From an uncultured delta proteobacterium (GTDB taxonomy: Bacteria > Desulfobacterota > Binatia > Binatales > Binataceae): a stretch of DNA of 64,000 nt. The stretch spans positions 72,990-136,989 of the forward strand of contig CAWENP010000001.1 of assembly GCA_963810495.1 (NCBI GenBank). Direction: 5' to 3'. The notes below the pieces were generated by a model that saw only the letters and a program-made list of their open reading frames with translations, was not told the DNA's origin and made no database searches. Positions 26,735 to 49,795 of this stretch are shown piece after piece. A program made the translations under genes and the position numbers. Position 1 is the stretch's first letter; every line of letters begins with the position of its first letter.

Positions 26735-26955
26735 CGGCATGACGGGCAGGGCAAGCCGGCTGCGCAGGCCTTCAGCGCGCCAAGCGCGCAACAACGGTTG
26801 GAGGTTGTGAATTTTCCCAATACACTTTGCCGCAGCGGAAGTCTCGCATCATGCGCTACAGCAACAGATTTCGCGTCACGCCCGGACACAAGGTCAAGCT
26901 CGCCGATATTGATCCCGGCTTTCACTCCACGCATGAAGACGAGGCGGCGGCCAAG
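26735..26955 (+). repeat. direct repeat copy B: DUF1111 3' end fragment (pseudogene piece) fused to the PPK2 5' end
   Basis: Aligns with 24770..24868 and 24975..25090; translation HDGQGKPAAQAF..SAQQ.L.VVNF.NTL matches the copy 2 C-terminus. Confidence 0.6.
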
Positions 26956-27696
26956 GGTGAGATCGTGACGAACCTCGAGAAGCTGCGCGCCTTGCAGTAT
27001 TTGATGTATGCCGAGAACAAGCGATCGCTCCTGGTCTGCCTGCAAGCGATGGATGCCGGCGGCAAGGACGGCACTATCGAGCACGTCATGGGCGCGATGA
27101 ACCCGCAGGGCTGCCGGGTGCAGGCGTTCAAGACGCCTTCCGCCGAAGAGGCCGCTCATGATTTCCTGTGGCGCGTACACAAGGCCGTCGGGGGCAAGGG
27201 AACGGTGACCGTTTTCAACCGATCACATTACGAGGACGTGCTGGTCGTGCGAGTGCATAAGCTGGTTCCGAAAGAGGTATGGTCCCGGCGCTACGATCTT
27301 ATCAACGACTTCGAAAAAGAGCTGACTGACGGCGGCACGCATATCCTCAAATTCTTTCTGCACATCAGCAAGGAGGAGCAGCTCGCTCGATTCAAGGACC
27401 GGCTCAACGATCCGACCAAGCAATGGAAGATCAGTGAGAGTGACTACCGGGAACGCGAGTTCTGGGATGACTACATGAAAGCCTATGAGGACGTCTTGCG
27501 AGAGTGCAGCACCGACGATGCGCCCTGGTTCATCATTCCGTCCAACCACAAGTGGTTCCGCAATCTTGCGGTTTCACAGATCCTCGTGGAGCATCTCGAG
27601 GCTTTGAAAATGGAATTCCCCAAGCCCACGGCCGATCTCAAACAGATCGAACGCCGGTATCACCGCGCGGAAAGGGAAGCGCACAAGCGCCGGTAA
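26851..27696 (+). CDS. ppk2: polyphosphate kinase 2 (PPK2 family polyphosphate:nucleotide phosphotransferase)
   Basis: LLVCLQAMDAGGKDGTI (Walker A-like), VFNRSHYEDVLVVRVH, FLHISKEEQLARFKDR, PWFIIPSNHKWFRNLAVSQIL. Confidence 0.8.
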   Translation: MRYSNRFRVTPGHKVKLADIDPGFHSTHEDEAAAKGEIVTNLEKLRALQYLMYAENKRSLLVCLQAMDAGGKDGTIEHVMGAMNPQGCRVQAFKTPSAEEAAHDFLWRVHKAVGGKGTVTVFNRSHYEDVLVVRVHKLVPKEVWSRRYDLINDFEKELTDGGTHILKFFLHISKEEQLARFKDRLNDPTKQWKISESDYREREFWDDYMKAYEDVLRECSTDDAPWFIIPSNHKWFRNLAVSQILVEHLEALKMEFPKPTADLKQIERRYHRAEREAHKRR

Positions 27697-29766: not shown

Positions 29767-30752
29767 TCAGCGTATAAAAGGATCCCGCGCACGGGCAGCA
29801 CGCTGAATCCCAGGAGCAGCAACGGTTTTCTGCCCCAGGTGCCCGCGGTGCGGCCAGCCCACGCGGCGATTTAGGGTGATCGTGAACTGCGTGGTCACAA
29901 CGCAGGCCGACATGAACATCATCGAACTGCGGCCCCTGCCCTTCGCCAGCATCTCGCCGAGCAGCGGCAGCATCGCCGCGTTGGCGAAGTGAAACAGCAC
30001 CGCGCAGCAGAGAAAGATTACGAGCGGACGATCGCGCAGCAGATACCGGATGCTGGCGCGCCGATCATCGTCGTCCGCGCCGGCGCCTCGCGCGAGTTCG
30101 TAGTCGATCTCGTCGGGCCGGATGAGCGTCAGCGACAGGATCGTCGGAATCGCGAGCAGTGCGACAAAGAAAAGACCGCGCGGTTGGAGATGAAATATCC
30201 GACGAGCCCGATCGTCACGGCGGCGGCCACGTTGCCGGCCGAATTGAAGGTCTGATTTCGGCCCTGGCGGCGATTGAACAGCCTGTGCCCCACCAGGCCG
30301 AGCGAGATCACCGCGATGGCGGGCATGAAGAAGCTGGACATCGCGCCGATGAGCGCCTGGGTCGTCATCACGGTCCAGAACGACGGAAAGAACGCGATTA
30401 GGAGCGCTCCGAGCGCCAACGCGCACACGCCCAACGCGACGAGCGCTCTCTTGGACCTGAGCCGGTCCACCAAACCGCCCGCTGGAGTTTGCGACACGAT
30501 ACCGGCAATTCCGCCGATCATGAGCGCCAGCCCGACGCGCTGTTCGTTCCAACCATAGCCGGCAAGATAGATCGCGAGGAACGGCCCGACGCCTGACTGG
30601 ACGTCGGCAAGCAGAAAATTGAGCCAGTCGAGTCCGCGCAGGCTGCGGGCGGAAGGCCGCCTTTCTTCGTTCAAGCCGGCCCCGGCAAGCGCCTTGTCAC
30701 CCGTCTCCAGCCCGCTCGCGGAAAAACCCGTCTCTCGCTGCGTCATTCGCAA
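29767..30752 (-). pseudogene. MFS transporter split by a frameshift (N-half 30129..30752, C-half 29767..30552); an additional plus-strand MFS C-terminal fragment at ~29583-29752
   Basis: Multiple TM helices with an MFS-like pattern in two overlapping ORFs. Confidence 0.5.
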
Positions 30753-33287: not shown

Positions 33288-35570
33288 CTACTTCATCACG
33301 CGACGGGCGAAGCCTCTGCGCCGCCGCCGGGTCTTTTCCTCTTCCTTCTCGCGCTTTTCGACGACGTCGATCATTGCGAGCTGGCAGTTGTTCTTCCGAT
33401 CGCCGGGCAGCCGCACGTAGCTGCCATCGGAACGCATCTCCCACGCCGCGTGATTGGGCTTGAGCTGCAGGTCGAACACCGCCCGCAGTTCCTTGCGCAG
33501 CGTCGGGTCCTCGACCGGCGCCACAGCCTCGACCCGGCTCTCCAGGTTGCGTTTCATGCAATCGGCCGAGCCGATGAAATATTCCTCCGCGCCGCCGTTG
33601 CGAAAATAGTAGATGCGCCCGTGCTCGAGGAAGCGCCCGACGACGCTCACCACGCGCACGCTTTCTGAGAGGCCGGGGATTCCCGGGCGCAACCGGCAGG
33701 TGTCGCGTACGATCAGATCGATCTTCACTCCGGCCTGCGCGGCGCGGTAGAGCGCGCGCGTGATGTCGACGTCCTCGAGCGCGTTCATCTTCATCTGGAT
33801 CAGGCCCGGCGAGCCGGATCGCTGGAGTTTGACCTCGCGATCGATCTTCTCGAGCAGGGCCCGCTTGAGCAGGGCCGGCGCCGGCAGAATTTTTCTGAAC
33901 GTGCGGCCGGCGCGATAGCCGGTGGTGAGAAAATTGAACAGCTGCGTAAGGTCGGCTCCGATCGCGTCGTCGTTGGTCAGCAATCCGAAGTCGGCGTACA
34001 GGCGCGCGGTGCCCGCGTGATAGTTGCCGGTGCCGATATGCGCGTAGCGGCGCAGCCCGTTGTAATCCTGGCGCACCACCAGGATCACCTTGCAATGAGT
34101 CTTGAGTCCCACCACGCCGTAGGTGACGTGGATGCCGTATTCCTCGAGCTGCTCGGCGAACTGGATGTTGGCGGCTTCGTCGAAGCGCGCCTTGAGCTCG
34201 ACCACCACGGCAACCTGCTTGCCGTTGCGCGCCGCGTCGCACAGATATCCGATCACTTCCGAATCGCTCGAGGTGCGGTAGAGCGTCATCTTGATCGCCC
34301 GCACCTTGGGGTCCTCGCTGGCCTCGCGCAGAAAGCGTCCGACCGAGGTCGGAAACGATTCGTACGGATGCATCAGCAGAATCGAGCCGGCCTCGCGAAT
34401 CACGTGAAAGATGTTGCGCGAGGGCGCGAGACGCGCGTGGTCGGCCGGATGGTGGGGTGGATCGTGCAGCGCCGGGTTATCGACGGAGGTCAATTCCATA
34501 AGATCGCGCATCGCCAGCATCCCCGCGTCGATCTCGAACACGTCGTCGTGCTCGTCCAGGCCAAGCTCGGCCGCGAGCATCCCGCGATGCGCGGGATTCA
34601 TGCCGCGCACGGCCTCCATCCGGACGATCGGCGCGAAGCGACGGTCGCGCAGCTCGGACTCGATTAGCGCCAGCAGATCGTCGGCCTCGTCCTCGTCGCG
34701 CTCCGTGTTGGCGTTGCGGGTGACGCGGAAAAATTCGTAGCCGTCGATCTTCGCCTCGGGAAAGAGCAGGTCGAGGGTGTGCGCGACCACGTCCTCGAGT
34801 GGGACGAAGCGCCGGGTGCCGTCGACCCGCAGAAAGCGCGGGATGCCGAGCCCGACCGGCACCTTGACCCGCGCCAGCGACGGCTCGGTGTCGTCGGGGG
34901 CGCGCAACGTGACCAGCAGATTCAGCGAGAGGTTGGAGATGAACGGGAACGGATGCGCCGGGTCCATCGCCTGCGGCGTCATCAGGGGAAAAATGTTGCG
35001 CAGATAGTACTCGCGGATGGCGGCCTGCTCGGCCGGGCTGAGCTGGTCGAAGGCGAGTATGTGGATGTCGGCTTCGGCAAGCCGCTTGAGCAGATCGGGC
35101 AGCAGCGCGCGCTGCTCCGCCTCGAAGGCACGCACCTCGGCCAGGCACTCCGCGATCTGCTGCTGCGGCGTGCGCCCATCGTCGGTCAGCTCCTGCATCC
35201 CGGCGATCGCCTGCTGCTTGAGGCCGCCGATCCGCTTCATGAAAAATTCGTCGAGGTTCGACGCGGTGATGGCCAGGAACTTCACCCGCTCGAGCAGCGG
35301 ATTGCCCTCGTCGAGCGCCTCGGCAAAAACGCGCCGGTTGAACGCGAGCCAGGTGAGTTCGCGATTGAGGAACAGTTCGGGCGCTTTGAGATCGGCGTCG
35401 ATGCGGACCGCTGCCGCCGCACCGCCATTGACGCCGTGGGCCTCCGTGAGAGGCCCGTCACCGTTGGCTACCTCGACGCCGGCCGCCGGAACGACGGCCG
35501 CCTCGCGCGCCATCGACGGTTCGAGTGAGAGCGACTGGAGCGGCTGAAAGGGCTCTGTTTGACTCGCCAT
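33288..35570 (-). CDS. ppk: polyphosphate kinase 1 (start probably downstream of the first listed Met)
   Basis: FLNRELTWLAFNRRVFAEA...KFLAITASNLDEFFMKR...; two PLD-like HxK regions; 760-aa intact ORF. Confidence 0.9.
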   Translation of the reverse strand: MASQTEPFQPLQSLSLEPSMAREAAVVPAAGVEVANGDGPLTEAHGVNGGAAAAVRIDADLKAPELFLNRELTWLAFNRRVFAEALDEGNPLLERVKFLAITASNLDEFFMKRIGGLKQQAIAGMQELTDDGRTPQQQIAECLAEVRAFEAEQRALLPDLLKRLAEADIHILAFDQLSPAEQAAIREYYLRNIFPLMTPQAMDPAHPFPFISNLSLNLLVTLRAPDDTEPSLARVKVPVGLGIPRFLRVDGTRRFVPLEDVVAHTLDLLFPEAKIDGYEFFRVTRNANTERDEDEADDLLALIESELRDRRFAPIVRMEAVRGMNPAHRGMLAAELGLDEHDDVFEIDAGMLAMRDLMELTSVDNPALHDPPHHPADHARLAPSRNIFHVIREAGSILLMHPYESFPTSVGRFLREASEDPKVRAIKMTLYRTSSDSEVIGYLCDAARNGKQVAVVVELKARFDEAANIQFAEQLEEYGIHVTYGVVGLKTHCKVILVVRQDYNGLRRYAHIGTGNYHAGTARLYADFGLLTNDDAIGADLTQLFNFLTTGYRAGRTFRKILPAPALLKRALLEKIDREVKLQRSGSPGLIQMKMNALEDVDITRALYRAAQAGVKIDLIVRDTCRLRPGIPGLSESVRVVSVVGRFLEHGRIYYFRNGGAEEYFIGSADCMKRNLESRVEAVAPVEDPTLRKELRAVFDLQLKPNHAAWEMRSDGSYVRLPGDRKNNCQLAMIDVVEKREKEEEKTRRRRRGFARRVMK

Positions 35571-35790: not shown

Positions 35791-37146
35791 ATGGCTTTTC
35801 TGTCATTCACGCTTCGCGTGCTCTTGACGCTCGCACTCGCGAGCGCACTCCGCATCGCGATTTCCGATAGCGCGGCCGCCGCCGCGGAGAGCGCTCCCGC
35901 GCCCGCGGTCACGATACCCGCGGGCACCGTCATAACCGCGGCGAACTGGCAGCGGTACTCGAGCTTCATGCCCGTCGGGATGCAGGCGATCTTCGCCGGC
36001 GATCATTTCTGGCGGATGCCGCCCGACGTGCAGATCGAGATCGGGCCCACCATCCCGATCGCATTGCCTCGTCGATATCTCGATGACACCGCCAATTACG
36101 CGAAGCAAGTGACGCTCACGCACGCAGCGGACGGCGGCTACGTCCCGGCCGGGTACGTAGCCGGTATTCCATTCCCGCAGCCGGACAAGGATCCGGTGCT
36201 GGCGCCCTACGAAATTTTCTACGACGCCTACTATCACTACGCGCCACGGGTGCAACGGAATTTTTCCTGCAACTACATCTCCGATTCCTACGGAAACTTC
36301 ACCCAGTCCGAGACCGCCGACTCGATCTATTCGCAACTCACGCATCTGAGCGACGCCGGTTTTCCGCAGACCGTGCCGGATTCGAGCGGATACTTCCTGA
36401 CCAAATACTACCAGCAAATCACGCCCGAGCAGGGAAAATATAGTACCACCCTCGACATCAGCTATGCCGACGTGACGCGGCTCGATGATATCTACATATA
36501 CCTTCCCTCGACTCGCAGGCCGCTTCGCATGTCGGAGGCGTCACGCTGCGCGCCGCTTCCGGGCGGCGACTTCACCTTCGAGGAATCCAACAACGGACCG
36601 CCCTCGTTGCCGCAGAAATACAAAATCGTCAACGGCGGCGTGCGGCGAATGATGGTCCTTGCGCACGCCGATCCGAAATCGTTCGAAAGCTGCGGCTCCG
36701 CGACGGGCCTTCTATCCGACTACTTTTACCCGAGCGACAAGGGCGTATTGCCGTGGCCGCGGCCGGCGCTGGGCAAGTGGGAAATGCGCGAAGTGTATGT
36801 GATCGAGATGCGCCGGCTGCCGGCCTACGCTAGTGGCTATTGCTACAGCCGACGAGTGATCTACGTGGACAAGGAGACACTCTTTCCACTGGCTATCGAC
36901 CTGTACGATTCGGCCGGCGCCTTGTACAAGTTCTGGGTGGGGTTTGAAACTCCGCTGCGCGTGCCCAACACCGGGACGGCCCTCGGCGTGAACGGCGCCA
37001 CCGATTTGCTGATCGTAAATTTCAAGGACAAGCACATGACCGCAGCGACCGCGGCGAGTCCGTGCTTCAACACCGACTGTAACGCGCAGTACCTTGATGC
37101 GAGCCGCTACGCGAGCCCCGAAGGGCTGAGCAAGATCGCGCAGTGA
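35791..37146 (+). CDS. secreted DUF1329-like protein (paralog 1)
   Basis: Signal peptide; similar size and organisation to the downstream DUF1329 protein. Confidence 0.45.
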   Translation: MAFLSFTLRVLLTLALASALRIAISDSAAAAAESAPAPAVTIPAGTVITAANWQRYSSFMPVGMQAIFAGDHFWRMPPDVQIEIGPTIPIALPRRYLDDTANYAKQVTLTHAADGGYVPAGYVAGIPFPQPDKDPVLAPYEIFYDAYYHYAPRVQRNFSCNYISDSYGNFTQSETADSIYSQLTHLSDAGFPQTVPDSSGYFLTKYYQQITPEQGKYSTTLDISYADVTRLDDIYIYLPSTRRPLRMSEASRCAPLPGGDFTFEESNNGPPSLPQKYKIVNGGVRRMMVLAHADPKSFESCGSATGLLSDYFYPSDKGVLPWPRPALGKWEMREVYVIEMRRLPAYASGYCYSRRVIYVDKETLFPLAIDLYDSAGALYKFWVGFETPLRVPNTGTALGVNGATDLLIVNFKDKHMTAATAASPCFNTDCNAQYLDASRYASPEGLSKIAQ

Positions 37147-37235
37147 GGTTCCGCGCCGGTTGCGCGCGGAGACGGGGCTATTGCAAGATGGCCTGATGGC
37201 AACCTGGGCCCGGTGCCAATCTGAGGAGAAAACGA

Positions 37236-38699
37236 GTGAGACAGAGTTTCAGAAACCGCAGATGGGAGCGAGTGATCGTGCTCCCGTCGATGTTCGCCGC
37301 AGTCATCGCAGTTATCGCGGCAGTGGTCGCACTCGGCGCCTCTCGCGCCGCGGCGCAGAACGTCAAGACCTACACGCGGGCGAACGTCGACCAATGGATG
37401 AGCAAGTACGCCGACGCCAAACCCGACTTCAAGCCGGGAGACGTCCTAGGCAGCAAGGACCTCGAGCGGATTCGCCCGTTCGTGCCGCCCGGATGGTTCG
37501 ATCAGCTCAACTTCCCGGAATTCAAGATGGAGATCATGGCGGCGCGCAGCCACATGCCGCGCAAGGACTTTCAGGAATGCACCGAGAAATACCAGGCGCA
37601 GGTCAAGCTCAACCCTGACGGCTCACTGGCCAACTACGTTTGCGGGCAGCCGTTTCCTAACGCCTCGCTCAGCACTTCGGATGCGCTCTCGGGAATCAAA
37701 GCAGCCTGGAATTTCGATTATCGATGGCAGAACTACGGCGAGTTCTCGCTTAACTATCTTTTCATCGTCTCCCAGTTCGGCGGCAATCACGACGGCGACG
37801 CGCCCAAATTGATCGAGTCGCCGCCCTCGAACTGGGTCGGGGGTGTCGAGTATCATAGCAAGCTGCCCACGGATGCGAGCAAGTTTTTCGGCGGCGGCGG
37901 GAGCTTCGCCCGCACCTTGAGCAGTTTCTACCGGCGGGTTTATTTCAGCCATCTCGCCCAGCGCGCGGACCAGAAGGGATTGCTGGGCACGCCCGACTCG
38001 GGGCAATTCCTGTGGAAGGAATTCACCGGCTTCTTTTCGCCCTACGACGTGCGCGGGCAGGTGTTCATCACCTACCGCTATGCCGATCCTCATCGCGCCG
38101 ACGACGCCTGGGCCTACGATCCGCAGTCGCGCCGCGTCCGGCGCGTCTCGGTCGAGGTCAAATCCGACTCGGTCGAAGGCACCGACACCACGCAGGAAGA
38201 TTTCTACACTTTCTCGGGCCGCGAGCTGCACTGGCACTGGAAGTTCCTCGGCTGGAAGGACGTGCTGGCAGTTCTCGACTCGCGCGACGATTACGCTCAC
38301 CTGTTTGGCCCCAACGGCGAAATTCCCAACGACCGCTGGTCGTTGCGGCGCTTCGCGGTGGTCGAACGTACTCCTGTCGAGGCTCATCATCCCTACAGCA
38401 ATGTGGTGATGTTCTGGGACGCCGAGAACTGGCATCCGTGGATGGCGCTCGCGTTCAACCGCGACGGCAAACTATGGAAGCTGTGGGAACTCCAATGCCG
38501 CTGGACCGAGGACTTCCACAGTTTCGCCGAGATCAATCATGGCGTGGAGTCGACCATGTTGATCGGAGAGGATGTCGTCGATCTGCAAAACGACCGCGCC
38601 ACGATATTCGCAGGGTTCGGCAGTGGCTATCCCGACGCGGTACCGGCCAACGTCACCCAACTCTACGACATCAGCAAATTGGAGGAGATGCATCGCTGA
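37236..38699 (+). CDS. secreted DUF1329 family protein (paralog 2)
   Basis: Signal peptide; AYDPQSRRVRRVSVEVKSDSVEGTD and NWVGGVEYH blocks reminiscent of DUF1329. Confidence 0.55.
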   Translation: MRQSFRNRRWERVIVLPSMFAAVIAVIAAVVALGASRAAAQNVKTYTRANVDQWMSKYADAKPDFKPGDVLGSKDLERIRPFVPPGWFDQLNFPEFKMEIMAARSHMPRKDFQECTEKYQAQVKLNPDGSLANYVCGQPFPNASLSTSDALSGIKAAWNFDYRWQNYGEFSLNYLFIVSQFGGNHDGDAPKLIESPPSNWVGGVEYHSKLPTDASKFFGGGGSFARTLSSFYRRVYFSHLAQRADQKGLLGTPDSGQFLWKEFTGFFSPYDVRGQVFITYRYADPHRADDAWAYDPQSRRVRRVSVEVKSDSVEGTDTTQEDFYTFSGRELHWHWKFLGWKDVLAVLDSRDDYAHLFGPNGEIPNDRWSLRRFAVVERTPVEAHHPYSNVVMFWDAENWHPWMALAFNRDGKLWKLWELQCRWTEDFHSFAEINHGVESTMLIGEDVVDLQNDRATIFAGFGSGYPDAVPANVTQLYDISKLEEMHR

Positions 38700-38748
38700 C
38701 GCGGCACGCCCCATCGGCGTATGCTGCTGCCCCGGCGGCGGGCGCGTC

Positions 38749-39765
38749 CTAATCCTGGCTTTTGGCCGTATCCTTGGTCGTGGTTGCGGCCGCGCTCCAT
38801 ATAGCGGTCTTCGGATGAAACGCCGCCCACGCGAACCAGTAGCCATTGTAGATCGGGACGCGCTCGCCTGACACGCTTGCGGTGACCGCGCCGGAGTCCG
38901 CGTCATAGGCAATAGTCAGATCCGCGCCGCCCAGTTGAACCCGAAGCGGCATCGGTGCCTCACTGAGCTTTGACAGCGGAAACGCTTCGTCCTGGCCGCC
39001 CGCCGATAGGCCCAGGACCAGTTCATGAGCGGAGAGCCGCTCGTCGAGATGCGTGACCGGCGACACTACCTGATCGCCGTGCTCATATCCCCAGTACGGA
39101 TCGACTCCATAGTCGCGCGTATAGCCAGTATTGATACTAAGTACGTCGGTCGAGGGATGTTTCTTTTGCCAGGCCTCCCAGGTCATGATCGTGCTCGGTA
39201 TCGCCGTCAGCTTCTGACCCGCCATCGGTCCGGCCAACGCCTGACCCTCGAGCTGCGACCACAGGCTCTGCGTGCCCTCATCGTAGAGCACCAGGTTGCT
39301 CTGGTAGAGCTTGCCCGATACGGCGAAGGTGAGCGTCTTGCCGCCGGCGTCGCGGCTGTACACGGCGGCGCCCTGGACCAACGGGCAGAAGGTCACCGCG
39401 AGCGGCGTCCCTGCGATCGAATCGTCGACGACCTCGTGCCAATTGAGAATCTTGATCGGATAGGCGCGCGCCCGCCCTTGGACGACCACGCCGATCACCT
39501 TGTCGTTGGATTCGAGAAACGTTGCGTGATCGGCCTTGACGAATTGCGGCTCCAGCACGGCCGGAATCGCGTCCTTCGCCGGGCCGCCGTCGCGAATCTC
39601 TGCGGGCGGCACCACGTGATGGCTAAGGTCGAAGCCGCTTAAGACCGGATAAATCGCAACCGCGGCGGCAATCGCCAGCGCGCGGCCGAATCGCTTGCGG
39701 CGCGGAGGCTGCCCTCGCCTATTTATCGTAGCACCTGGCATTGCACCTCGCATCACATCCCGCAT
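38749..39765 (-). CDS. DUF3179 family protein
   Basis: ARAYPIKILNWHEVVDDSIAGTPLAVTFCPLVQG...SGKLYQSNLVLYDEGTQSLWSQ. Confidence 0.55.
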   Translation of the reverse strand: MRDVMRGAMPGATINRRGQPPRRKRFGRALAIAAAVAIYPVLSGFDLSHHVVPPAEIRDGGPAKDAIPAVLEPQFVKADHATFLESNDKVIGVVVQGRARAYPIKILNWHEVVDDSIAGTPLAVTFCPLVQGAAVYSRDAGGKTLTFAVSGKLYQSNLVLYDEGTQSLWSQLEGQALAGPMAGQKLTAIPSTIMTWEAWQKKHPSTDVLSINTGYTRDYGVDPYWGYEHGDQVVSPVTHLDERLSAHELVLGLSAGGQDEAFPLSKLSEAPMPLRVQLGGADLTIAYDADSGAVTASVSGERVPIYNGYWFAWAAFHPKTAIWSAAATTTKDTAKSQD

Positions 39766-39835: not shown

Positions 39836-40828
39836 CTAACTGGAGAGCCGGGCACGATCGTGCGGCGCGCCGAAATCGATCGCCGGGCCCTTGGGCACGA
39901 TGCGAGTCGGGTTGATCATCGCGTGACTTGCATAATAGTGACGCTTGATATGCGCGAGGCTGACCGTCTCGGCGACACCGGGCACCTGGTAGAGATCACG
40001 CGTGTAACCCCATAGATTCGAGTAGTCAATGATGCGGCGCAAGTTGCATTTGAAGTGGCTATAGTAAACCGCGTCGAAACGCACCAGCGTGGGGAACAGC
40101 CGCCAGTCGGCCTCGGTCGCGCGACCGCCGAAGAGGTAGCGCTGGCGCGCCAGGCGCTGCTCGAGCCGATCGAGCGTCTCGAACAGCGGGTCGAAAACCG
40201 CCTCGTAGGCCTCCTGCGTTTTGGCGAAGCCGCACTTGTATACACCGTTGTTGACGGTGTCGTAAATGACAGCGTTGAGTTCGTCGATCTCCGCGCGCTG
40301 CGCCTGCGGATAGAGATCGTCGCCCGCGGCGCCCAGCGCGTTGAAGGCCGAATTGAACATCCGGATTATCTCGGACGACTCGTTGCTGACGATGGTCCCG
40401 GTCTCGCGGTCCCATAACACCGGCACCGTGACGCGTCCCGTGTAGTCGCGCCGAGCCTTGGTATAAACCTCGTGCAGGTAGCGCGCGCCGTTCAGATCAT
40501 CGCGCGTCGCGCCGGGTGTGAGCGACCCGTCCGGCGCGCTGAAGGCCCATCCGTCATCGCCCATGAACGGATCGACCACCGACACCGTGATCGCGTCGTC
40601 GAGCTTCTTCAGCTTGCGCACGATGAGCGTGCGATGGGCCCACGGGCAGGCGAGCGATACGTACAAGTGGTAGCGCCCGCGTTCGGCCTTGAAGCCGCCC
40701 TCCCCGCTCGGCCCGGGGCGGCCGTCGGCCGTCACCCAATTCCTGAACACGGTCTGCGGACGGACGAAATGGGCCCCCGCCGAGCGAAGGTCATCGCGCT
40801 GCCATTGGCCGTCGAGCATCATACCCAT
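39836..40828 (-). CDS. glutathionyl-hydroquinone reductase (YqjG/Xi-class GST)
   Basis: CPWAHRTLIVRKLKKL active-site motif; ~330 aa; start at MGMMLDGQWQ. Confidence 0.75.
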   Translation of the reverse strand: MGMMLDGQWQRDDLRSAGAHFVRPQTVFRNWVTADGRPGPSGEGGFKAERGRYHLYVSLACPWAHRTLIVRKLKKLDDAITVSVVDPFMGDDGWAFSAPDGSLTPGATRDDLNGARYLHEVYTKARRDYTGRVTVPVLWDRETGTIVSNESSEIIRMFNSAFNALGAAGDDLYPQAQRAEIDELNAVIYDTVNNGVYKCGFAKTQEAYEAVFDPLFETLDRLEQRLARQRYLFGGRATEADWRLFPTLVRFDAVYYSHFKCNLRRIIDYSNLWGYTRDLYQVPGVAETVSLAHIKRHYYASHAMINPTRIVPKGPAIDFGAPHDRARLSS

Positions 40829-40874: not shown

Positions 40875-41762
40875 ATGGGCCAAAGTCTCACAAACCCCGG
40901 CCTCGCAGGGCTGCAAGCGCTGCTCTACCGGCTGATCACGGCGCCCGAGGGCGTAGCCGCCGGTCTCGCCGCCGAACGCCCCGAGGTGCGCGCCGATTTG
41001 GACCATTTTATTGAGAGCGATGATCGCCTCTCCGCGACCGAGCGTCTCGAGATTTACGCCAACGCCTACTTCTACCGCATCCTGGACTGCCTGAAGGAGG
41101 ATTTCCCGGCGACGCTCGCAACGCTCGGCGCCGACGACTTCCACAACCTGGTCACCGGCTACCTGATCGAGTATCCGCCGACCGAACCTTCTATCTCTTA
41201 CGCCGGCCGCCATCTGGCCGAGTTCCTGCGCCACGATTCGATGCGGGCGATGATCGAACGATGGCCGTTCATCGCCGAGCTGGCGCGGCTGGAGCGGACG
41301 TTGATCGAGGTTTTCCATGCTGCGGAGGCCGAACCGTTGAACGCCGAAGCGATGCGTTCGGTCGCGCCTGAGGATTGGCCGGCGCTCGCGATGCGCACGC
41401 ATCCGGCGCTTGCGATCGTCGATTGCGAATGGCGCGTGGACGAGCTATTGCGCGAAGTCGAAGCCGCCGCGGGCGAAAGCGATCAAACCCATGACACGCC
41501 CGCGCATGCTCGTGGCGCGCCCACGCATGCGCCGGTCAGCGTGCTGGTGTGGCGGCACAACTCGCGTGTCCATTACCGCGCGTTGGAGCGCCCGGAGCGC
41601 GCGGCGCTCGAAGTCGCGAGCGCCGGCGCAAGTTTCGCGACGATATGCGAGACGGTTGCCGCGGCATGCGGCCAGGACGAAATGATTGCGCCGGTTGCGC
41701 TTATCAACCGGTTGCTTGAGCAATGGATCGCGGCGGGCCTGCTCGTCCTGGCGGACAAGTGA
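40875..41762 (+). CDS. DUF2063 domain protein (putative DNA-binding)
   Basis: ERLEIYANAYFYRILDCL...; first 62 codons of the ORF overlap the convergent GS-HQR gene, so start taken at the Met at 40875. Confidence 0.55.
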   Translation: MGQSLTNPGLAGLQALLYRLITAPEGVAAGLAAERPEVRADLDHFIESDDRLSATERLEIYANAYFYRILDCLKEDFPATLATLGADDFHNLVTGYLIEYPPTEPSISYAGRHLAEFLRHDSMRAMIERWPFIAELARLERTLIEVFHAAEAEPLNAEAMRSVAPEDWPALAMRTHPALAIVDCEWRVDELLREVEAAAGESDQTHDTPAHARGAPTHAPVSVLVWRHNSRVHYRALERPERAALEVASAGASFATICETVAAACGQDEMIAPVALINRLLEQWIAAGLLVLADK

Positions 41763-41820: not shown

Positions 41821-42075
41821 CTAAACCGAATCTTCCCGCAGTTGCGGATGCTCCAGAAGCTTGTAGCTGACGAGAGCCGTCGGCGTACCCTCCTCAATAT
41901 TGCGCAGGCGGAAGTACGGCGCGTCCATCCCTCCGCCCGACTTGAGGCTGACCACCTCGTGAAGCCTGCCGCGGAAGATCACGCGGCTCCCCGGCAGCAT
42001 CCTTATCGCTGTGCGCTTCTCCATCGTGGCTAACTCCTCCACCCCCTTGAGCTCACCGCCACCCAGCCTCGTCAT
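41821..42075 (-). CDS. hypothetical small protein
   Basis: 84-aa ORF only. Confidence 0.2.
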   Translation of the reverse strand: MTRLGGGELKGVEELATMEKRTAIRMLPGSRVIFRGRLHEVVSLKSGGGMDAPYFRLRNIEEGTPTALVSYKLLEHPQLREDSV

Positions 42076-42207: not shown

Positions 42208-43839
42208 ATGGCAATCGTGAGGGGCGAGCAGATAATCGCACGCTGCTTAAGCAACGAAAAAGTCGACACGATCTTTTTCATGATGGGCGGACCGACCAGC
42301 GGCACCGCGGGCGCGTGCCTCGACCTCGGGATGAAGGGCATCTACGTACGCCACGAGCAGGCGGCGGCGATGATGGCGCACGCCTACGCGCGCGTCACGG
42401 GCAAACCGGGCGTCTGCATCACGCCGTCGGGACCCGGCACGGCCAACGCGCTCACGGGGCTCGCCAACGCGTGGGCCGACGCCACGCCGATAATCGCGAT
42501 TGGCGGTTCGGCGCCGATGCGCGCGACCACGCTCGACGCCTTCCAGGAGATGGACCAGGTCGCGATCATGAAGCCGGTGGTCAAGGCGGCCTACCGGGTC
42601 GACATGGCAAGCCGCATCCCGGAGTACATCAGCGTCGCGTTTCGTGAGGCGCTCGACGCCAAGAAGGGGCCGGTCTACCTCGACCTGCCCGGCGACATTC
42701 TAAATCACAAGGTCGACGACGAAAAACTCCTGTTCCCCGCCAACTACCGCGTCGAGAGCCGCCCCGCCGGCGACCCTGTGCAGGTGGAATGCGCAATCGA
42801 GTTGCTCGCCGGGGCCGAACGCCCGATCGTGGTTACCGGCAGCGGAGTGTTATGGTCGGGCGCGTCCGCCGAACTGCGCGACTTCATCGACAGCACCGGG
42901 TTGCCGTTTTACACCACGCCGCAGGGCCGCGGCGTGATACCCGAAGACCATCAGCGTTCGTTCCCGGGCGCGCGCTCGATGGCGTTTCGCGAGGCCGACG
43001 TGGTGCTGGTGGTGGGCGCGCGGGCGAATTCGATGCTCTCGTTTCTGCGCGCGCCGCGCTTTTCGCCCGGGGCCCGCTTCATCAGCGTCAACCTCGACGG
43101 CCGCGAGATCGGCCACAACCGCGGCGTCGAGGTCGGGATCATCGGCGACGCCAAGCTGGTTCTGCGCCAGTTGACGGAGGAGGCGGACGGCCGCTTCGAG
43201 GCGCATCGTGAGAGCGCGTGGGTCGCGCAGCTTAGCGCGAAGCATCGCTCCAACCAGGAGCGCTCGACGCCGTTGCTCCATTCCGACGCCGTGCCGATCC
43301 ATCCGCTGCGCCTGTGCCGCGAGGTTCGCGATCTGATCTCGCGCGACACCATCCTCATCGTCGACGGCCACGAGATTCTGAACTTCGCGCGCCAGTCGAT
43401 TCCGATCTACCAGGCCGGATGCAGCCTCAACGCGGGACCGCACGGATGTATGGGCGTCGGCGTGCCGTTCGGAATCGGCGCCAAGGTCGCCAGGCCCGAA
43501 GCGCCGGTGCTGGTGCTCTCGGGCGACGGCGCATTTGGATGGAACGGGATGGAGATGGACACGGCGATTCGCCATCAACTGCCGATTGTGGTGGTGATCT
43601 CGAACAACGCCGGCTTCACCTCGCGCAAGACCGGCGGCACGGTCGGGCGTGAGCTGGGATGGCAGCGCTACGACAAGATGGTCGAGGCGCTGGGCGGATA
43701 CGGCGAGTTCGTCGAGAAGCCCGAGGGCATCCGCGGCGCGATCGAGCGCGCGTTCAAAACCGGCAAGCCCGCGCTGGTCAACGTCTGCACCGACCCCGAG
43801 GCTCAGGCGACCACGGACATGGGGTTTGCGGGTTACTGA
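42208..43839 (+). CDS. thiamine-diphosphate-dependent enzyme (oxalyl-CoA decarboxylase / 2-hydroxyacyl-CoA lyase / acetolactate synthase-like)
   Basis: N-terminal Pyr domain (GVCITPSGPGTANALTGLANAWAD), C-terminal TPP-binding GDGAFGWNGMEMDTA...NN. Confidence 0.8.
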   Translation: MAIVRGEQIIARCLSNEKVDTIFFMMGGPTSGTAGACLDLGMKGIYVRHEQAAAMMAHAYARVTGKPGVCITPSGPGTANALTGLANAWADATPIIAIGGSAPMRATTLDAFQEMDQVAIMKPVVKAAYRVDMASRIPEYISVAFREALDAKKGPVYLDLPGDILNHKVDDEKLLFPANYRVESRPAGDPVQVECAIELLAGAERPIVVTGSGVLWSGASAELRDFIDSTGLPFYTTPQGRGVIPEDHQRSFPGARSMAFREADVVLVVGARANSMLSFLRAPRFSPGARFISVNLDGREIGHNRGVEVGIIGDAKLVLRQLTEEADGRFEAHRESAWVAQLSAKHRSNQERSTPLLHSDAVPIHPLRLCREVRDLISRDTILIVDGHEILNFARQSIPIYQAGCSLNAGPHGCMGVGVPFGIGAKVARPEAPVLVLSGDGAFGWNGMEMDTAIRHQLPIVVVISNNAGFTSRKTGGTVGRELGWQRYDKMVEALGGYGEFVEKPEGIRGAIERAFKTGKPALVNVCTDPEAQATTDMGFAGY

Positions 43840-43924
43840 GGCTGGTCACGCGATGAACTGAGAGGCGCGCGGGCAAATTCTGAACCCCTCGTGTTTTGGG
43901 GGGGGGTTAAAGTGGAGGTCAATC

Positions 43925-43962
43925 GAGGAAGCGCCATTTTCTAATTCCCGCGGCGCTTCCTC
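43925..43962. terminator. perfect 11-bp inverted repeat (gaggaagcgcc / ggcgcttcctc, 16-nt loop) between convergent genes, a candidate bidirectional terminator; a G9 homopolymer lies just upstream (43897-43905)
   Basis: Seen directly; no flanking U-run. Confidence 0.35.
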
Positions 43963-44002
43963 GAATCCTTTCACCGCAGTGCAGTCGCAATCGTTTACGA
44001 AC

Positions 44003-44893
44003 TCATCGCGCGCCCGTGCGGCGAGCCACCTCGAGCACGCGGCGCGCGCGCGTCAGATGCGGCACGTCGACCATCTCGCCGCGAAACGTGAACGCCATCC
44101 GCCCGGCCTTGCTGTTTTCCTCAAACGCCGCGAGCAGTTCCTCGGCGTCCGCGATCTCCTGCTTCGAGGGCGAAAAAACCTCGTTGACGATTTCGATCTG
44201 GCTTGGATGGATCGTAATTTTGCCGGTGAAACCCATCCAGGCGCCCTCGATACAATCGCGGCGGCATCCGTCGGGATCCTTGATATTGACAAACACGGTA
44301 TCGATCGGCTGCACCGCGGCCGCGGTGGCCGCGAGCAGCGTCATGATCCGCGCGTAGCGGAATACTTCGAGGAATTCGCCGCGTTCGTCGCGATTGCGCC
44401 GCGCGCCGATCGCCGCCGAAAGGTCCTCGGCGCCCCAGGACATGCTGTCGACGCGCGGATGCAGCCCGAGGTCCTTGATGTTGAGCAGACCCTGCGGCGT
44501 CTCGGTCGCAAGCAGCAGCAGCTTGACGCTGCGCTCGGGATAGCCGTACTGCTTCTCGAGGCCGCTCAGAATCGAATCGATCTTTTCCACGTCGGCGAAG
44601 GTCCGCACCTTGGGCACCATGTAGGAATCCGGCCGCCCCGCCATCGTGGCCTCGAGGTCGGCGACTCCCCACGGCGTCTCCAGCGGATTCATCCGCACCA
44701 TCCGCTCGCGCCCCTTGAAGTCGACCTTCTGCAGCCACTCGGTGACCGTCTTGCGCGCGGAGGCCTTGTTGTCGGGCGTGACCGAGTCCTCGAGGTCGAG
44801 CACCAGCGCGTCGGCCGGGAGATCGATCGACTTGGCCAGCATCTTGTCGTTGGCGCCGGGCACGAAATGCACGGCGCGGCGCAGCGTCTCCAT
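44003..44893 (-). CDS. HpcH/HpaI aldolase / citrate-lyase beta (CitE)-like acyl-CoA lyase (malyl/citramalyl-CoA lyase-like)
   Basis: VPGANDKMLAKSIDLPADALVLDLEDSV...; EGAWMGFTGKITIHPSQIEIVN. Confidence 0.75.
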   Translation of the reverse strand: METLRRAVHFVPGANDKMLAKSIDLPADALVLDLEDSVTPDNKASARKTVTEWLQKVDFKGRERMVRMNPLETPWGVADLEATMAGRPDSYMVPKVRTFADVEKIDSILSGLEKQYGYPERSVKLLLLATETPQGLLNIKDLGLHPRVDSMSWGAEDLSAAIGARRNRDERGEFLEVFRYARIMTLLAATAAAVQPIDTVFVNIKDPDGCRRDCIEGAWMGFTGKITIHPSQIEIVNEVFSPSKQEIADAEELLAAFEENSKAGRMAFTFRGEMVDVPHLTRARRVLEVARRTGAR

Positions 44894-44928
44894 AGTCGGC
44901 TACTCCAGATGTTCGCTTCGGCGCGCGG

Positions 44929-45396
44929 CTACTTGTTGGGCTTGCGCAGCATCATCGCTGCCCGCTTGCAGCGCATCACGGTCTCATTGCGCTGGTTGCG
45001 CGCGCGATGCTCGAGGATGACGATGCCCCAGTTGGGATGCGATTTCGACGGCCGCACCTCCAGCACTTCGCTCTCGGCGTAGAGCGTGTCGCCGATGAAT
45101 ACCGGTTTGGGAAATTCAACCTTCTCGAACCCCAGATTGCCGACCGTGGTGCCGAGCGTGAGGTCGCCGACCGAAAGGCCGACCGCCAGCCCGAGGGTGA
45201 AGATCGAGTTGACGAGGCGCTGGCCGAATTCGGCCTTTTTGCCGAACTCGGCGTCCAGATGCAGCGGCTGCACGTTCATTGTGAGCGTCGTGATCAGCAG
45301 GTTGTCGGTCTCGGTGACTGTGCGGCCGGGCTGATGCTGAAACGTTTCGCCGACTTTGAACTCTTCGAAATACTTGCCCATCGTGATCGCTCCCAA
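44929..45396 (-). CDS. MaoC-like (R)-specific enoyl-CoA hydratase/dehydratase
   Basis: Hot-dog fold MaoC pattern [33 protein letters not shown]. Confidence 0.75.
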
Positions 45397-45492
45397 CGCG
45401 AATATGCGCGAGTTTTTGCGTGCGCCGCCTGGCGCAGGCGCTCCGAATCATAGTCCAGGTGCGCGCCCGCAACCAGCCGCGCGCGAGTATGC

Positions 45493-47502
<2,010 letters not shown>

Positions 47503-47518
47503 GGCGATAGCCTGGGCG

Positions 47519-48370
47519 CTACACCTTGTCGATTATCTCAGCACGGAAGCGCTCGAGCTCCGAGCCCTCGAGCGCCTTGATCGGAAGCCCGGCAAGCGTG
47601 CGATCCACGCCGAGCTCGGCCATCCGGCGCACGTCGTCGGCCGTGAGCGGCTTGCCGGTGCGCAGGCTGAGCGTGATCTCGATCGGCCGCGTGCGCTCCG
47701 CCGCGCGCGCGTACTCACGCAGGCGCGAAATCAGCGTCCCCGCCTCGTCCAGGCTGTGCGCGATCCCGTACCATCCGTCGCCCAGCCGAACGGTGCGCTT
47801 GAGCGCGGGCTCGCTGGTGCCGCCGAAGACGATGGGTGGATGCGGCTGCTGGACGGTTTTGGGCATGAACTTCATCCCCTGGGTCGCAACCGTCTTGCCC
47901 TTGTAAAGCGGATCGCTCTTGCTCCACAGCTCGATCATCACCTCCAAGTACTCGCGAGTGCGCAGCGCGCGATCCTCGAACTTCATCCCCACCGCCTCGA
48001 ACTCCTCCTTGAGCCATCCGATACCGACGCCGAAGATGACGCGGCCCTGGCTCAGTTGGTCGAGCGTGGCGATCGCCTTGGCGGTGGCAAAGGCGTTGCG
48101 CAGCGGCACCACGAAGATGCCGGTGGCGAGGCGAATCTTCGTGGTCAGCGCGGCGACGTAGGCGAGCGTAAGCAGCGGATCGTGAAACGGCGCGTCAGGC
48201 GGCACGAGAAAGCGGCCGTCGGGCGTGTACGGATAGGCCGAGGTCTGCTTCACCGGCATGATCAGGTGCTCGGCGATCCAGGCCGACTCGAAACCGAGCT
48301 GCTCGGCCTGGCGCACGTCGGCGGCGATCGCCTCGCCGCGCTGCTTGGTGATGAAGGTGCCGAATTTCAT
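47519..48370 (-). CDS. LLM-class flavin/F420-dependent oxidoreductase
   Basis: MKFGTFI...[15 protein letters not shown]...VPL luciferase-like pattern. Confidence 0.7.
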
Positions 48371-48408
48371 GAGCGCGTACCTCGCCGCAAACTCGTCATG
48401 TAAATTGG

Positions 48409-49689
48409 CTAATAAATCGGCCCGAAAGCCGCGCGCGCATGGCGCTCGAGCGGCTCGCGAAAGTCCGGATGCGCGATCGCGATCAGCCGCCGCGCGCGTT
48501 CCTCCAGGCTCATGCCGCGCAGATGCGCCGCACCGTACTCGGTCGCCACGATATCGACGTCGGAGCGCGCCGTGGTCACGATCGGATCGTTCAGCGACGC
48601 CACGATCCGGCTGACCTTGCCGCTGCGCGCCGTCGCCGGCAGCGCGATTATCGATTTCCCGCCGCGCGAGCGCCGCGCCGCGCGCACATAGTCGACCTGG
48701 CCGCCGACCGCGCCGATATACGTTCCGCCGGCGACTTCGGCGTTGACCTGGCCGCTTAGGTCGACCTCGATCGCGGAATTGAGCGAGACGAATCCGTCGA
48801 TTCGCGCCAGTAGCTCGATCTTGTGCGTGACGCTGAGCGGCACGAGGCGCAAGGCGCGGTTGCGATGGGCGAAGTCGTACAGCTTTCGCGTGCCCAGCAG
48901 CGTCCCGGTGATGCTTGCGTCGCGATCGAACGGCTTGGTCTCGTTGGTCACCGCCCCCGACTTAATCAGATCCACCACGGCGTCGCTGAGCATCCCCGAG
49001 TGCAGCCCGAGCCGGCGATGGCTATGCAGGGCGTCGAGGATCGCGCACGGCATCGCACCGATTCCCATCTGGATTACCGCGCCGTCGGGCACCAACTCCG
49101 CGACCCCCCGCGCGATCCTTTTATCGATCTCGCTCGGCTCGCGCGTGGAATGCTCCAGCGGCGGACGCGAGCTGCGCACGAGATAGTCGACCCGCGCCAT
49201 ATCGAGCGGCTCGTCGGAGTAAGTCCACGGCAGTTGATCGTTGACCTGGGCAATCACCGTGCGCGCGCGGCGCATCGCGATTTTCAGATAGTCGTTAACA
49301 AGCCCCATGCTGTATTCGCCGGCACCATCGGCGGGCGGGCTCAGATGGAGCATCACTACGTCGGCTTTGAGGATGCCGCTATCGAACAGCGACTCGACGT
49401 CGGAAAGCTGGCAGGGGATGAGACGCAGCACGCCCGCGTCGACCAGGCGACGCCGGGTCCCTATAGCGCTCATCCCGAGAAACGTGAGGCAATCAGCATG
49501 CTCCGGTTGAAGCGTCTCCGAATATCCCGGCCCGAGAAATAGCGTGATCGGACCGATCGCGTGGCGCTGCGCGACCAGCGTCTCTGAGAGCGTCAGCGGC
49601 TCGGCCGCCCCTTGCGCCCAGACCACGGTGTCGCCGCGCCGGATATAGCGCGCAAGCTCAAGTTCTTCGGCTCGCAGTTCGATAGTCAT
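48409..49689 (-). CDS. acetyl-CoA hydrolase/transferase family protein (Ach1/Cat1-like CoA-transferase)
   Basis: Start MTIELRAEEL at 49689; two-domain CoA-transferase pattern. Confidence 0.7.
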   Translation of the reverse strand: MTIELRAEELELARYIRRGDTVVWAQGAAEPLTLSETLVAQRHAIGPITLFLGPGYSETLQPEHADCLTFLGMSAIGTRRRLVDAGVLRLIPCQLSDVESLFDSGILKADVVMLHLSPPADGAGEYSMGLVNDYLKIAMRRARTVIAQVNDQLPWTYSDEPLDMARVDYLVRSSRPPLEHSTREPSEIDKRIARGVAELVPDGAVIQMGIGAMPCAILDALHSHRRLGLHSGMLSDAVVDLIKSGAVTNETKPFDRDASITGTLLGTRKLYDFAHRNRALRLVPLSVTHKIELLARIDGFVSLNSAIEVDLSGQVNAEVAGGTYIGAVGGQVDYVRAARRSRGGKSIIALPATARSGKVSRIVASLNDPIVTTARSDVDIVATEYGAAHLRGMSLEERARRLIAIAHPDFREPLERHARAAFGPIY

Positions 49690-49795
49690 CGTGAAAAGTG
49701 AAAAGCGGCGTGGCAACGGCTGGACGAGAGGCTCCTGCGAGAGGTCCGGTGTTTCGCGATAAGTTCTAACCGATGCGCTTGCTCGGCCAGCGGCG

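Follow-up and report, generated by a model that had tools for sequence, protein, structure and literature searches.

Convergent arrangement of a DUF1329 tandem and a glutathione transferase-DUF3179 unit in a syntenic block of Binataceae

The window analysed, a 64-kb stretch of DNA from a soil bacterium of the Binataceae (phylum Binatota), carries two DUF1329 genes (A and B) followed on the opposite strand by a DUF3179 gene, a group that a first-pass annotation had presented as one cluster. With moderate probability, these genes belong to two independent convergent units lying in a syntenic Binataceae block, one coding for putative DUF1329 carriers and the other for a YqjG-type glutathione transferase (GST) and a single-cysteine, presumably redox-active DUF3179 protein, the juxtaposition of DUF1329 and DUF3179 being inherited gene order and not a functional pairing. 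As a cluster, the DUF1329/DUF3179 arrangement is ordinary.

Gene identity and organisation

The open reading frames (ORFs) of DUF1329-A (35791..37146, plus strand, 451 aa), DUF1329-B (37236..38699, plus strand, 487 aa) and DUF3179 (38749..39765, minus strand, 338 aa) are present at exactly the coordinates of the first-pass annotation, which had described a tandem of DUF1329 proteins of ~450-490 aa and an opposite-strand DUF3179 protein. Pfam assigns all three as it had proposed, with scores far over the gathering cut-offs (23.1 bits for DUF1329, PF07044; 27 bits for DUF3179, PF11376): A matches DUF1329 at E 7.7e-30 (104.8 bits), B at E 5.1e-39 (135 bits), and the DUF3179 protein matches its family at E 3.4e-86 (289.7 bits). 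A and B also match LolA_like (E 1.3e-12 and 2.2e-15, respectively). No match was obtained in NCBIfam with A, B, the DUF3179 protein or the GST.

The DUF1329 pair and DUF3179 are convergently transcribed, their stop codons being separated by a 49-bp spacer read from the sequence (38700..38748), in which no terminator-like site was found and which does not fold more stably than shuffled sequence (z 0.87). Shine-Dalgarno-like GAGG/GAGGAG motifs precede both DUF1329 starts, and the GC3 of the three genes (0.76-0.80) is that of the surrounding genes. Immediately 5' of DUF3179, on the same strand, lies the GST gene (39836..40828, minus strand, 330 aa from an internal ATG), with a promoter-like site upstream (40893-40864, minus strand) that is a consensus match only. 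It is divergent from an orphan DUF2063/HvfC-like gene (40875..41762, plus strand, ~295 aa), the two starts lying 46 bp apart. Judging from strand and spacing, DUF1329-A/B on the plus strand and GST/DUF3179 on the minus strand would form two separate, opposing transcription units, each presumably co-transcribed.

Conservation of the gene order

In each of the clade loci inspected, the most divergent of which has a DUF3179 protein of 77% identity, DUF1329-B lies next to DUF3179. However, an entire block of ~15 kb, including ppk1, isochorismatase and TPP enzyme genes, is syntenic across this one Binataceae clade and is equally conserved, so that the adjacency of DUF1329 and DUF3179 carries no specific signal. 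Of the two tandem genes, DUF1329-A is the dispensable one: intact in loci L001, L007 and L095, it is reduced to frameshifted pseudogene remnants in L096-L099 and absent from L005/L006, where an SDR gene stands between DUF3179 and B.

Outside this clade the adjacency vanishes. In L002, the locus of a B homologue of 76% identity, there is no DUF3179, and a BNR, MMPL and DUF1302 cluster begins 6 kb from the B homologue, its DUF1302 gene lying 6-8 kb away; the gene on the 5' side of this homologue is unrelated to A, and the A-B tandem is thus not kept either. The B homologue at 65% identity is a lone gene, as are those of A at 75% and 56%, all located among acyl-CoA, luciferase-like and hydrolase genes, while more distant homologues of A or B are solitary or near DUF1302, BNR or RND genes. 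Conversely, no DUF1329 gene was found near the DUF3179 homologues at 57% and 50% identity. In a survey of 80 species-representative DUF3179 loci with 10-kb flanks, DUF1329 adjoined DUF3179 in none of the 80 outside the window clade, and a short DUF1329-like (LolA-like) ORF occurred within 10 kb in two, at 3.6-6 kb in both. The first-pass annotation was right to call the combination atypical, whereas the cluster or pairing that it implied is not supported.

A single lineage-specific periplasmic module, with DUF3179 acting for instance on B or on its cargo, would account for the B-DUF3179 neighbourhood in all 10 clade loci that extend far enough, for the predicted hydrophobic export or anchor segments of all three proteins and for an invariant cysteine pair in B. 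Such a module is nevertheless very improbable given the convergent transcription, the SDR gene that splits B from DUF3179, the loss or decay of A in sister lineages, the disappearance of the adjacency in the more distant homologues of both B and DUF3179, the presence of a DUF1329-like ORF near DUF3179 in only 2 of the 80 loci, adjacent in neither, and the equal conservation of the whole block. Inherited gene order remains the preferred reading.

The DUF1329 proteins as putative carriers

The two DUF1329 proteins had been described as paralogs, a term that applies in a distant sense only: A and B are 24% identical over a stretch of 210 residues (E 5e-5) and each has a homologue set of its own (43-100% identity). 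They belong to one LolA-like family but diverged long ago. A MAG of Candidatus Binataceae codes for a protein 100% identical to DUF1329-A, and several dispersed copies of the family are present in Binataceae genomes. Both proteins have hydrophobic N-termini with Ala-rich ends (the best 15-residue Kyte-Doolittle means are 2.2 for A, 3.0 for B and 2.1 for the DUF3179 protein), and no lipobox was found in either, so they are predicted to be exported, soluble periplasmic proteins. DUF1329-A contains six cysteines.

Both A and B have the LolA-like half-barrel fold. In B, a signal/anchor helix (residues 17-36) precedes an N-terminal alpha/beta region, and the C-terminal part is the half-barrel, of ~230 residues. 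Compared with the known structures 4z48 (DUF1329 protein DESPIG_00262), 3bk5 and LolA3 of Porphyromonas gingivalis (9tp6), all of ~240 residues and only ~19-20% identical to them, A and B possess an additional N-terminal region of ~130-200 residues.

A and B are most likely orphan periplasmic LolA-like carriers of hydrophobic molecules, a putative role for which the closest described systems are those of AmeB (AmeABCD of Castellaniella defragrans) and PP_0766 (Pseudomonas putida), both DUF1329 components of DUF1302/DUF1329/BNR/HAE3-RND systems. They share with these the Pfam family, the size class (451 aa for AmeB), the predicted periplasmic location, the LolA-like fold and hosts that degrade hydrophobic substrates. 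In contrast to AmeABCD, two DUF1329 genes stand in tandem here, one of them dispensable in sister lineages, and no DUF1302, BNR (COG4447) or RND/MMPL (COG1033) gene was found among the Pfam-scanned larger ORFs of the window; the partners proposed below are therefore assumed, not seen. A and B are also very distant in sequence from the proteobacterial AmeB and PP_0766.

[quoted passage not shown] That DUF1329 usually accompanies DUF1302, as already remarked in the first-pass annotation, is supported, and cofitness links DUF1302, DUF1329, BNR and RND genes to one another in several bacteria (10.1101/072470). In P. putida, PP_0765/PP_0766 are required on Tween 20 and butyl stearate (10.1101/2020.07.04.188060), and monoterpene growth is impaired in a Castellaniella ameB::Tn5 mutant (PMC6394551). 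Published multimer predictions place DUF1329 on the DUF1302 barrel and on the BNR/RND pair (PMC13499233, PMC10866462), LolA3 has a hydrophobic groove (PMC13103446), and the Binatota are predicted degraders of alkanes and fatty acids (PMC8262859).

The P. putida fitness data on these two substrates also gave rise to the proposal that PP_0765/PP_0766 are enzymes (10.1101/2020.07.04.188060), and Binataceae DUF1329 paralogues are indeed located among hydrolase and acyl-CoA genes. That A and B would be esterases or hydrolases of fatty esters instead of carriers is nonetheless improbable, since they fold like the LolA/LolB half-barrels that bind lipids, neither has a hydrolase match or any catalytic-domain match in Pfam, and newer structure-based work from the same community prefers a transport complex for DUF1329 (PMC10866462, PMC13499233).

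The DUF3179 protein

The DUF3179 protein, predicted to be membrane-anchored or exported, comprises an N-terminal membrane/signal helix (residues 23-42) and, after it, an all-beta domain that includes a Rieske-like subdomain; no sequence relative was found in the PDB. Its conserved core, N108-W-H110-E...F-C127-P-L-V130, corresponds in translation to residues 108-130 (39376..39444, minus strand), and the peptide quoted in the first-pass annotation (NWHE...FCPL), NWHEVVDDSIAGTPLAVTFCPL, is found at residues 108-129 (39379-39444, minus strand). The Cys/His character to which that annotation had drawn attention proved a good lead. W109, H110, E111 and C127 are invariant in an alignment of 30 DUF3179 sequences, C127 (codon 39385-39387, minus strand) is the sole cysteine of the protein, and its position is occupied by an in-frame TGA (selenocysteine) in 11 of the 80 species-representative homologues. 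Published lists of selenoprotein families include DUF3179, as a UxxC/T family (PMC9312934, PMC13188914). A small conserved SECIS-like hairpin located 3' of the TGA codons, with compensatory changes in 2/6 pairs only, lends weak support to the selenocysteine reading.

Three motif classes can be distinguished at this site. The canonical form, C-P-L-C-G-T-G, has a second cysteine at position 130 and accounts for 64/80 loci; the selenocysteine forms (11/80) read U-P-L-T/S; and valine at position 130 is confined to the window clade, its CPLV variant being limited to the 28 closest clusters (at least 72% identity). The window protein thus shares with the selenocysteine and CxxC types the invariant W-H-E...C core and the N-terminal hydrophobic segment, whereas it lacks the second cysteine of the majority motif. 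Since C127 lies where other members have selenocysteine, it is most likely redox-active, and we regard it as probably a single-cysteine redox site with H110 and E111 as invariant neighbours. The change from CPLC to CPLV would imply resolution by an external thiol.

A Rieske identity was rejected. The CxH...CxxH ligands of Rieske [2Fe-2S] ferredoxins and NirD-type Rieske-fold proteins are absent, with at most His110 and Cys127 similarly spaced; DUF3179 proteins are about three times larger; and the Pfam Rieske model matched none of 30 members, even at E <= 10. The likeness is at the level of the fold only.

The glutathione transferase partner

The GST, an orthologue of E. coli YqjG, aligns with it end to end (3r3e/4g0i; phmmer E 6.2e-124, across residues 1-325 with 3r3e) and also matches 4fqu (E 9e-104) and 4uss (E 1.8e-97). 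Its translation contains the CPWA active-site motif ('SLACPWAHR'), and it belongs to the Xi class, of the YqjG/glutathionyl-hydroquinone reductase type, as does Sphingobium PcpF. It is found immediately 5' of DUF3179 and on the same strand in the window and in all ten related clade loci (L001, L005-L008 and L095-L099), with gaps of 14-111 bp. Strand and spacing suggest that this GST, rather than DUF1329, is the conserved operon partner of DUF3179 in the clade, a partnership seen in this analysis in the window clade only; to our knowledge, none has been described for YqjG or PcpF. With a cytoplasmic GST and a DUF3179 protein that is predicted to be exported, the operon link gives no direct biochemical relay.

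A tentative and less probable interpretation is that DUF3179 represents an unrecognised exported family derived from the Rieske fold, with a catalytic cysteine or selenocysteine at an old cluster-ligand position, and that its one-cysteine CPLV clade is tied to glutathione chemistry through the YqjG-type glutathionyl-hydroquinone reductase operon, the DUF1329 pair being unrelated.

Genomic context of DUF3179

An assembly index contained no exact match to the DUF3179 protein of the window, and the context of the gene was taken from the loci of its homologues. A Pfam census of the 131 ORFs directly flanking DUF3179 in the 80 genomes revealed no general partner, no family exceeding 5/131, and DUF1329 was not among the best 25 families listed. 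A further census, covering 108 ORFs in the surroundings of the 15 loci without CxxC, showed only weak recurrences: class-I disulfide reductase in 3-4, and VTT/DedA, DUF547 and radical SAM in two each. ECF sigma/anti-sigma genes and CMD genes occur within 10 kb in ~15/80 and ~13/80 loci, respectively; because such genes are common, these were not counted as enrichment.

Concerning the DUF2063 gene, it matches Pfam DUF2063 (E 3.3e-16) and scores 58.6 bits against NCBIfam HvfC, under the 142-bit cut-off. It belongs to a family of MNIO partner proteins, is considered here as neighbourhood context only, and is kept two genes from DUF3179 in all clade loci. This position, together with the complete BufA-MNIO-DUF2063 operons found beside DUF3179 in L009/L010, L011 and L016, mostly with ECF sigma and anti-sigma genes, raises the alternative that DUF3179 is a periplasmic handler of copper or thiophilic metals tied to the bufferin (MNIO RiPP) system, bufferin clusters being copper-stress systems (PMC11626156, PMC12452194). 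H110 and a CPLC knuckle would then make up a mononuclear site that goes back to a Rieske- or rubredoxin-like ancestor, and the window would be a decayed remnant that has kept DUF2063. The Rieske-like fold, an H-x16-CxxC spacing that resembles the Rieske CxH-x15-17-CxxH and the existence of several metal-binding selenoprotein families with UxxC motifs are consistent with this. Yet of the bufferin/Hvf core (precursor, MNIO, DUF2063 and DoxX) the window has the DUF2063 gene only, no MNIO/DUF692 (MbnB), BufA or DoxX ORF being detected in its 64 kb with home-made HMMs; both an MNIO gene and the second cysteine of DUF3179 are missing from the window clade; any bufferin gene lies within 10 kb in only ~3-5 of the 80 diverse loci; and the selenocysteine forms carry Thr/Ser, not Cys, at +3, which is more in keeping with a catalytic selenol than with a chelating pair. 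Metal handling is accordingly rather unlikely, and the redox reading of C127 is retained.

Biological significance

The adjacency of two DUF genes inside one syntenic lineage is no evidence of a shared system. Neither DUF1329 nor DUF3179 has an established function in the literature searched, as the first-pass annotation had noted, and no functional study of DUF3179 was found there. This family nevertheless offers several handles, namely a Rieske-like fold, one Cys/Sec that looks essential and is accompanied by an invariant His and Glu, the division into three motif classes (CxxC, UxxT/S and CxxV) and recurrent redox or metal-stress neighbours, which make a biochemical test straightforward. 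If its proposed link to glutathione chemistry is true, DUF3179 and the YqjG-type GST could, for example, respond to quinone or electrophile stress in two compartments. As for DUF1329, the many dispersed orphan genes that Binataceae carry among catabolic genes for hydrophobic compounds fit the idea that DUF1329 proteins are interchangeable carriers in the periplasm, all serving a common DUF1302/RND machine, and could help to test it.

Identity and coordinates of the three genes

The three open reading frames were confirmed where the first-pass annotation had placed them, and Pfam bore out its family assignments: DUF1329-A (hereafter A; 35791-37146, + strand, 451 aa, E = 7.7e-30) and DUF1329-B (B; 37236-38699, + strand, 487 aa, E = 5.1e-39), each with a secondary LolA_like match, and the DUF3179 protein (C; 38749-39765, - strand, 338 aa, E = 3.4e-86). 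No NCBIfam model matched A, B or C. All three have a codon-position GC like that of the neighbouring genes and a hydrophobic segment at the N-terminus; Shine-Dalgarno-like sequences precede both DUF1329 starts, and no lipobox was found in A or B. HMM and fold comparisons both place A and B in DUF1329, and C belongs to DUF3179 as a variant without the majority CxxC. The cluster adds one more example of families that are known but uncharacterised.

Genes surrounding the cluster

To the left of A lies ppk1 (33288-35570, - strand, identified by Pfam); with a PPK2 gene at 26827-27696 (+), polyphosphate kinases of the two types thus occur no more than 9 kb apart. Between them, an MFS transporter gene (29767-30752, -) is apparently split over two overlapping reading frames, a 207-aa ORF matching the first half of MFS_1 only and a second ORF of 261 aa; the cause could be a frameshift, or the gene may be a pseudogene.

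The next gene to the right of C, on the same strand, encodes a 330-aa glutathione transferase (GST; 39836-40828, -). Over its full length this protein matches E. coli YqjG (E = 6.2e-124); it also aligns end to end with other solved Xi-class glutathionyl-hydroquinone reductases, carries the CPWA motif and is a genuine Xi-class member. Divergent from the GST gene, at a distance of 46 bp, is a DUF2063/HvfC-like gene (40875-41762, +), followed by a small ORF without Pfam match (41821-42075, -), which is called at the same position, with 73-86 aa, in every clade locus examined. Using home-made HMMs, no MNIO, precursor or DoxX gene was found in the 64-kb window, leaving the DUF2063 gene an orphan, and the locus was rejected as a bufferin cluster.

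A catabolic block follows at 42208-52594, comprising a TPP enzyme, an HpcH/citrate-lyase-like protein, a MaoC hydratase and an acyl-CoA synthetase, then three luciferase-like monooxygenases and an acetyl-CoA hydrolase/CoA-transferase; after it comes a sigma-54 response regulator (52858-54366). Such a gene set fits the prediction that Binatota metabolise hydrocarbons and organic acids.

Unrelated to the three-gene finding, the initial ~18 kb of the window carry type IV secretion and relaxase genes (2951-18200, -), including VirB4/TrbE-like (6269-8500), TrbC/VirB2 pilin (8980-9363), VirD4/TraG coupling protein (11023-12885), MobA/VirD2 relaxase (12891-13901), CagX/VirB9 (16499-17446) and VirB8 (17471-18139), all on the - strand. 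The block is probably an integrated conjugative element. At 18-24 kb, GC falls to 0.51-0.57.

Conservation of the gene order among relatives

Gene contexts were gathered for homologues at graded distances from the window proteins, the clade compared being that of the DUF3179 proteins at 77-93% identity. The same order, with DUF2063 divergent from GST, GST co-directional with DUF3179, B convergent with DUF3179 and ppk1 farther on, was found in all of L001, L005, L006, L007 and L095-L099 (homologue loci); in L008, a short contig, what can be seen upstream of DUF3179 is a fragment of GST alone. The surrounding ~15 kb are equally conserved within the clade (isochorismatase, ABATE/CGNR, glyoxalase, TPP enzyme, HpcH and MaoC genes). 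The conserved block is plastic precisely at the DUF3179/B junction: in L005 and L006, an SDR gene lies between DUF3179 and B, and A is absent. As for L096-L099, tblastn detected A between B and ppk1 as frameshifted remnants, in pieces at 57%, 42% and 40% identity (L096 9588-10212; L097 9247-9871; L098 7765-8386; L099 5997-6618), showing that A is in decay in a sister lineage. In the 95%-identical contig L001, many genes are in fragments (DUF3179 of 246 aa; GST of 256 and 82 aa; DUF2063 of 121 aa plus pieces); these breaks are probably assembly frameshift errors rather than biology, and gene lengths there are untrustworthy.

Outside this clade, the association is lost. The B homologue at 76% identity (L002) has no DUF3179 gene; the gene upstream of it bears no relation to A, and a BNR, MMPL and DUF1302 set lies 6 kb away. 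The B homologue at 65% and the A homologues at 75% and 56% identity are solitary genes, surrounded by acyl-CoA dehydrogenase, CoA-transferase, PhyH, lactonase and luciferase-like genes, and no DUF1329 gene was found near the DUF3179 homologues at 57% and 50% identity. Among 80 species-representative loci searched with home-made HMMs, a DUF1329-like ORF lay within 10 kb of DUF3179 in two, both from Motiliproteus and both encoding short LolA-like proteins, 3.6-6 kb off; nor was DUF1329 among the top 25 families listed when the 131 ORFs directly flanking DUF3179 were classified with Pfam. The GST and DUF3179 genes, for their part, lie on the same strand with gaps of 14-111 bp in the window and in all ten related loci, which makes GST the gene with which DUF3179 is consistently partnered in this clade. 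Given this survey and the convergent orientation, A, B and C make up two units, neighbours by chance in a single lineage, and what had been noted as an atypical DUF1329-DUF3179 pairing is an inherited gene-order accident of one Binataceae clade.

DUF1329 paralogues and their proposed role

Identity between A and B is only 24% over 210 residues, and the two have separate homologue series, running from 100% (for A, to a Binataceae MAG protein) or 95% down to about 43-51% identity, in which every homologue with a named source comes from Candidatus Binataceae or Binatus. This assigns the window to a member of the phylum Binatota, and A and B are old paralogues and not the product of a recent duplication.

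Cofitness links DUF1302, DUF1329, a BNR protein and an RND protein of COG1033 in Shewanella, Kangiella and pseudomonads (10.1101/072470). Growth of P. putida on Tween 20 and butyl stearate requires PP_0765/PP_0766 (10.1101/2020.07.04.188060), a Castellaniella ameB::Tn5 mutant grows poorly on monoterpenes, AmeABCD behaving like an HAE3-type transporter (PMC6394551), and, according to a citation in PMC13101534, Delftia with a deleted DUF1329 gene is impaired in growing on phenanthrene. In published multimer predictions, DUF1329 sits on the DUF1302 barrel as well as on the BNR/RND pair (PMC13499233, PMC10866462), and LolA3 has a hydrophobic groove, no LolB binding and no assigned role (PMC13103446). 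The functional genetics from elsewhere point the same way as a LolA-like carrier reading of DUF1329. Since no DUF1302, BNR or RND protein was found among the scanned window ORFs, A and B cannot be shown to belong to a tetrapartite system of the AmeABCD type. They are probably periplasmic carriers of hydrophobic molecules, whose DUF1302/RND partners would be encoded elsewhere in the genome of a lineage, Binatota, predicted to degrade alkanes and fatty acids with many LadA-type monooxygenases (PMC8262859). That copies are scattered singly, and that A is decaying in sister lineages, points to interchangeable, substrate-specific accessories.

The conserved Cys/Sec site of DUF3179

W109, H110 and E111 are invariant in an alignment of 30 sequences. 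Among 120 aligned homologues, the conserved site falls into three classes: the majority (Y/F)CPLCGTG, a CPLT subgroup including other Binataceae, and FCPLVQ(G/D), confined to the 28 closest clusters. At the level of 80 genomic loci, 64 have CxxC, a few CxxT, CxxA or CxxN, and in 11 an in-frame TGA takes the place of the C127 codon itself, with PLT or PLS after it (L013, L014, L015, L017, L020, L021, L023, L029, L030, L044 and L067; mostly Desulfobacterota, with one Candidatus Binatia). As a rule in selenoprotein analysis, Sec/Cys pairs mark redox-active residues, so that C127, the sole cysteine of the window protein, is most likely a redox site; with the second cysteine lost, the mechanism implied is a 1-Cys one, in which an external thiol would do the resolving.

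Among the papers searched, DUF3179 comes up only in one genome paper and in two selenoproteome reviews, both of which give it a UxxC/T motif (PMC9312934, PMC13188914). A small, conserved hairpin with a GGUCU-like loop, 16-18 nt 3' of the TGA and with two of its six pairs compensatory, might tentatively be taken as a SECIS element. Since ORF calling cuts each of the 11 genes into two ORFs at the TGA, standard gene callers probably truncate them as well. In L014, a CMD/AhpD-like gene (4153-4734, -) lies immediately upstream of the DUF3179 gene of Sec type and is likewise split into two ORFs; CMD-like proteins being a listed CxxU selenoprotein family, it may be a second selenoprotein gene.

The H110-x16-C127-x2-(C/T/V) spacing seems to echo the CxH-x15-17-CxxH of Rieske proteins. 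The Rieske ligand set is absent from the protein; its likeness to Rieske domains is one of fold only, and it was rejected as a Rieske protein.

DUF3179 neighbourhoods in other genomes

Elsewhere, DUF3179 neighbourhoods are heterogeneous, with no dominant single partner among those surveyed, and show a tendency to redox and metal-stress genes. Complete bufferin operons (composition as in PMC12452194) with ECF sigma and anti-sigma genes occur near DUF3179 in L009/L010 and L011, and one with no sigma pair detected in L016. CMD/AhpD-like genes lie directly upstream of DUF3179 in three Nitrospira loci, and a few loci contain class-I disulfide reductases, DedA/VTT, thioredoxin/DsbA, AhpC or MAPEG genes.

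In a Binataceae MAG, a CPLT-type DUF3179 gene belongs to a co-directional run (L009 4902-9880; L010 3175-8153) of ECF sigma, anti-sigma (zf-HC2), MauE-like and GRDB-like (160 aa) genes, two ORFs without assignment, DUF3179 and a CMD/AhpD-like gene. The run directly adjoins a BufA-MNIO-DUF2063-DoxX bufferin cluster, with radical SAM, DUF547, CMD, VTT/DedA and class-I disulfide reductase genes farther downstream, and is a candidate regulon for redox or metal stress in the envelope.

Of more interest than the cluster itself are the Rieske-like fold of DUF3179, its Sec/Cys site, the 1-Cys clade with CPLV and the presumed operon with GST; the points on DUF3179 are inferential and bear on the family more than on the window locus.
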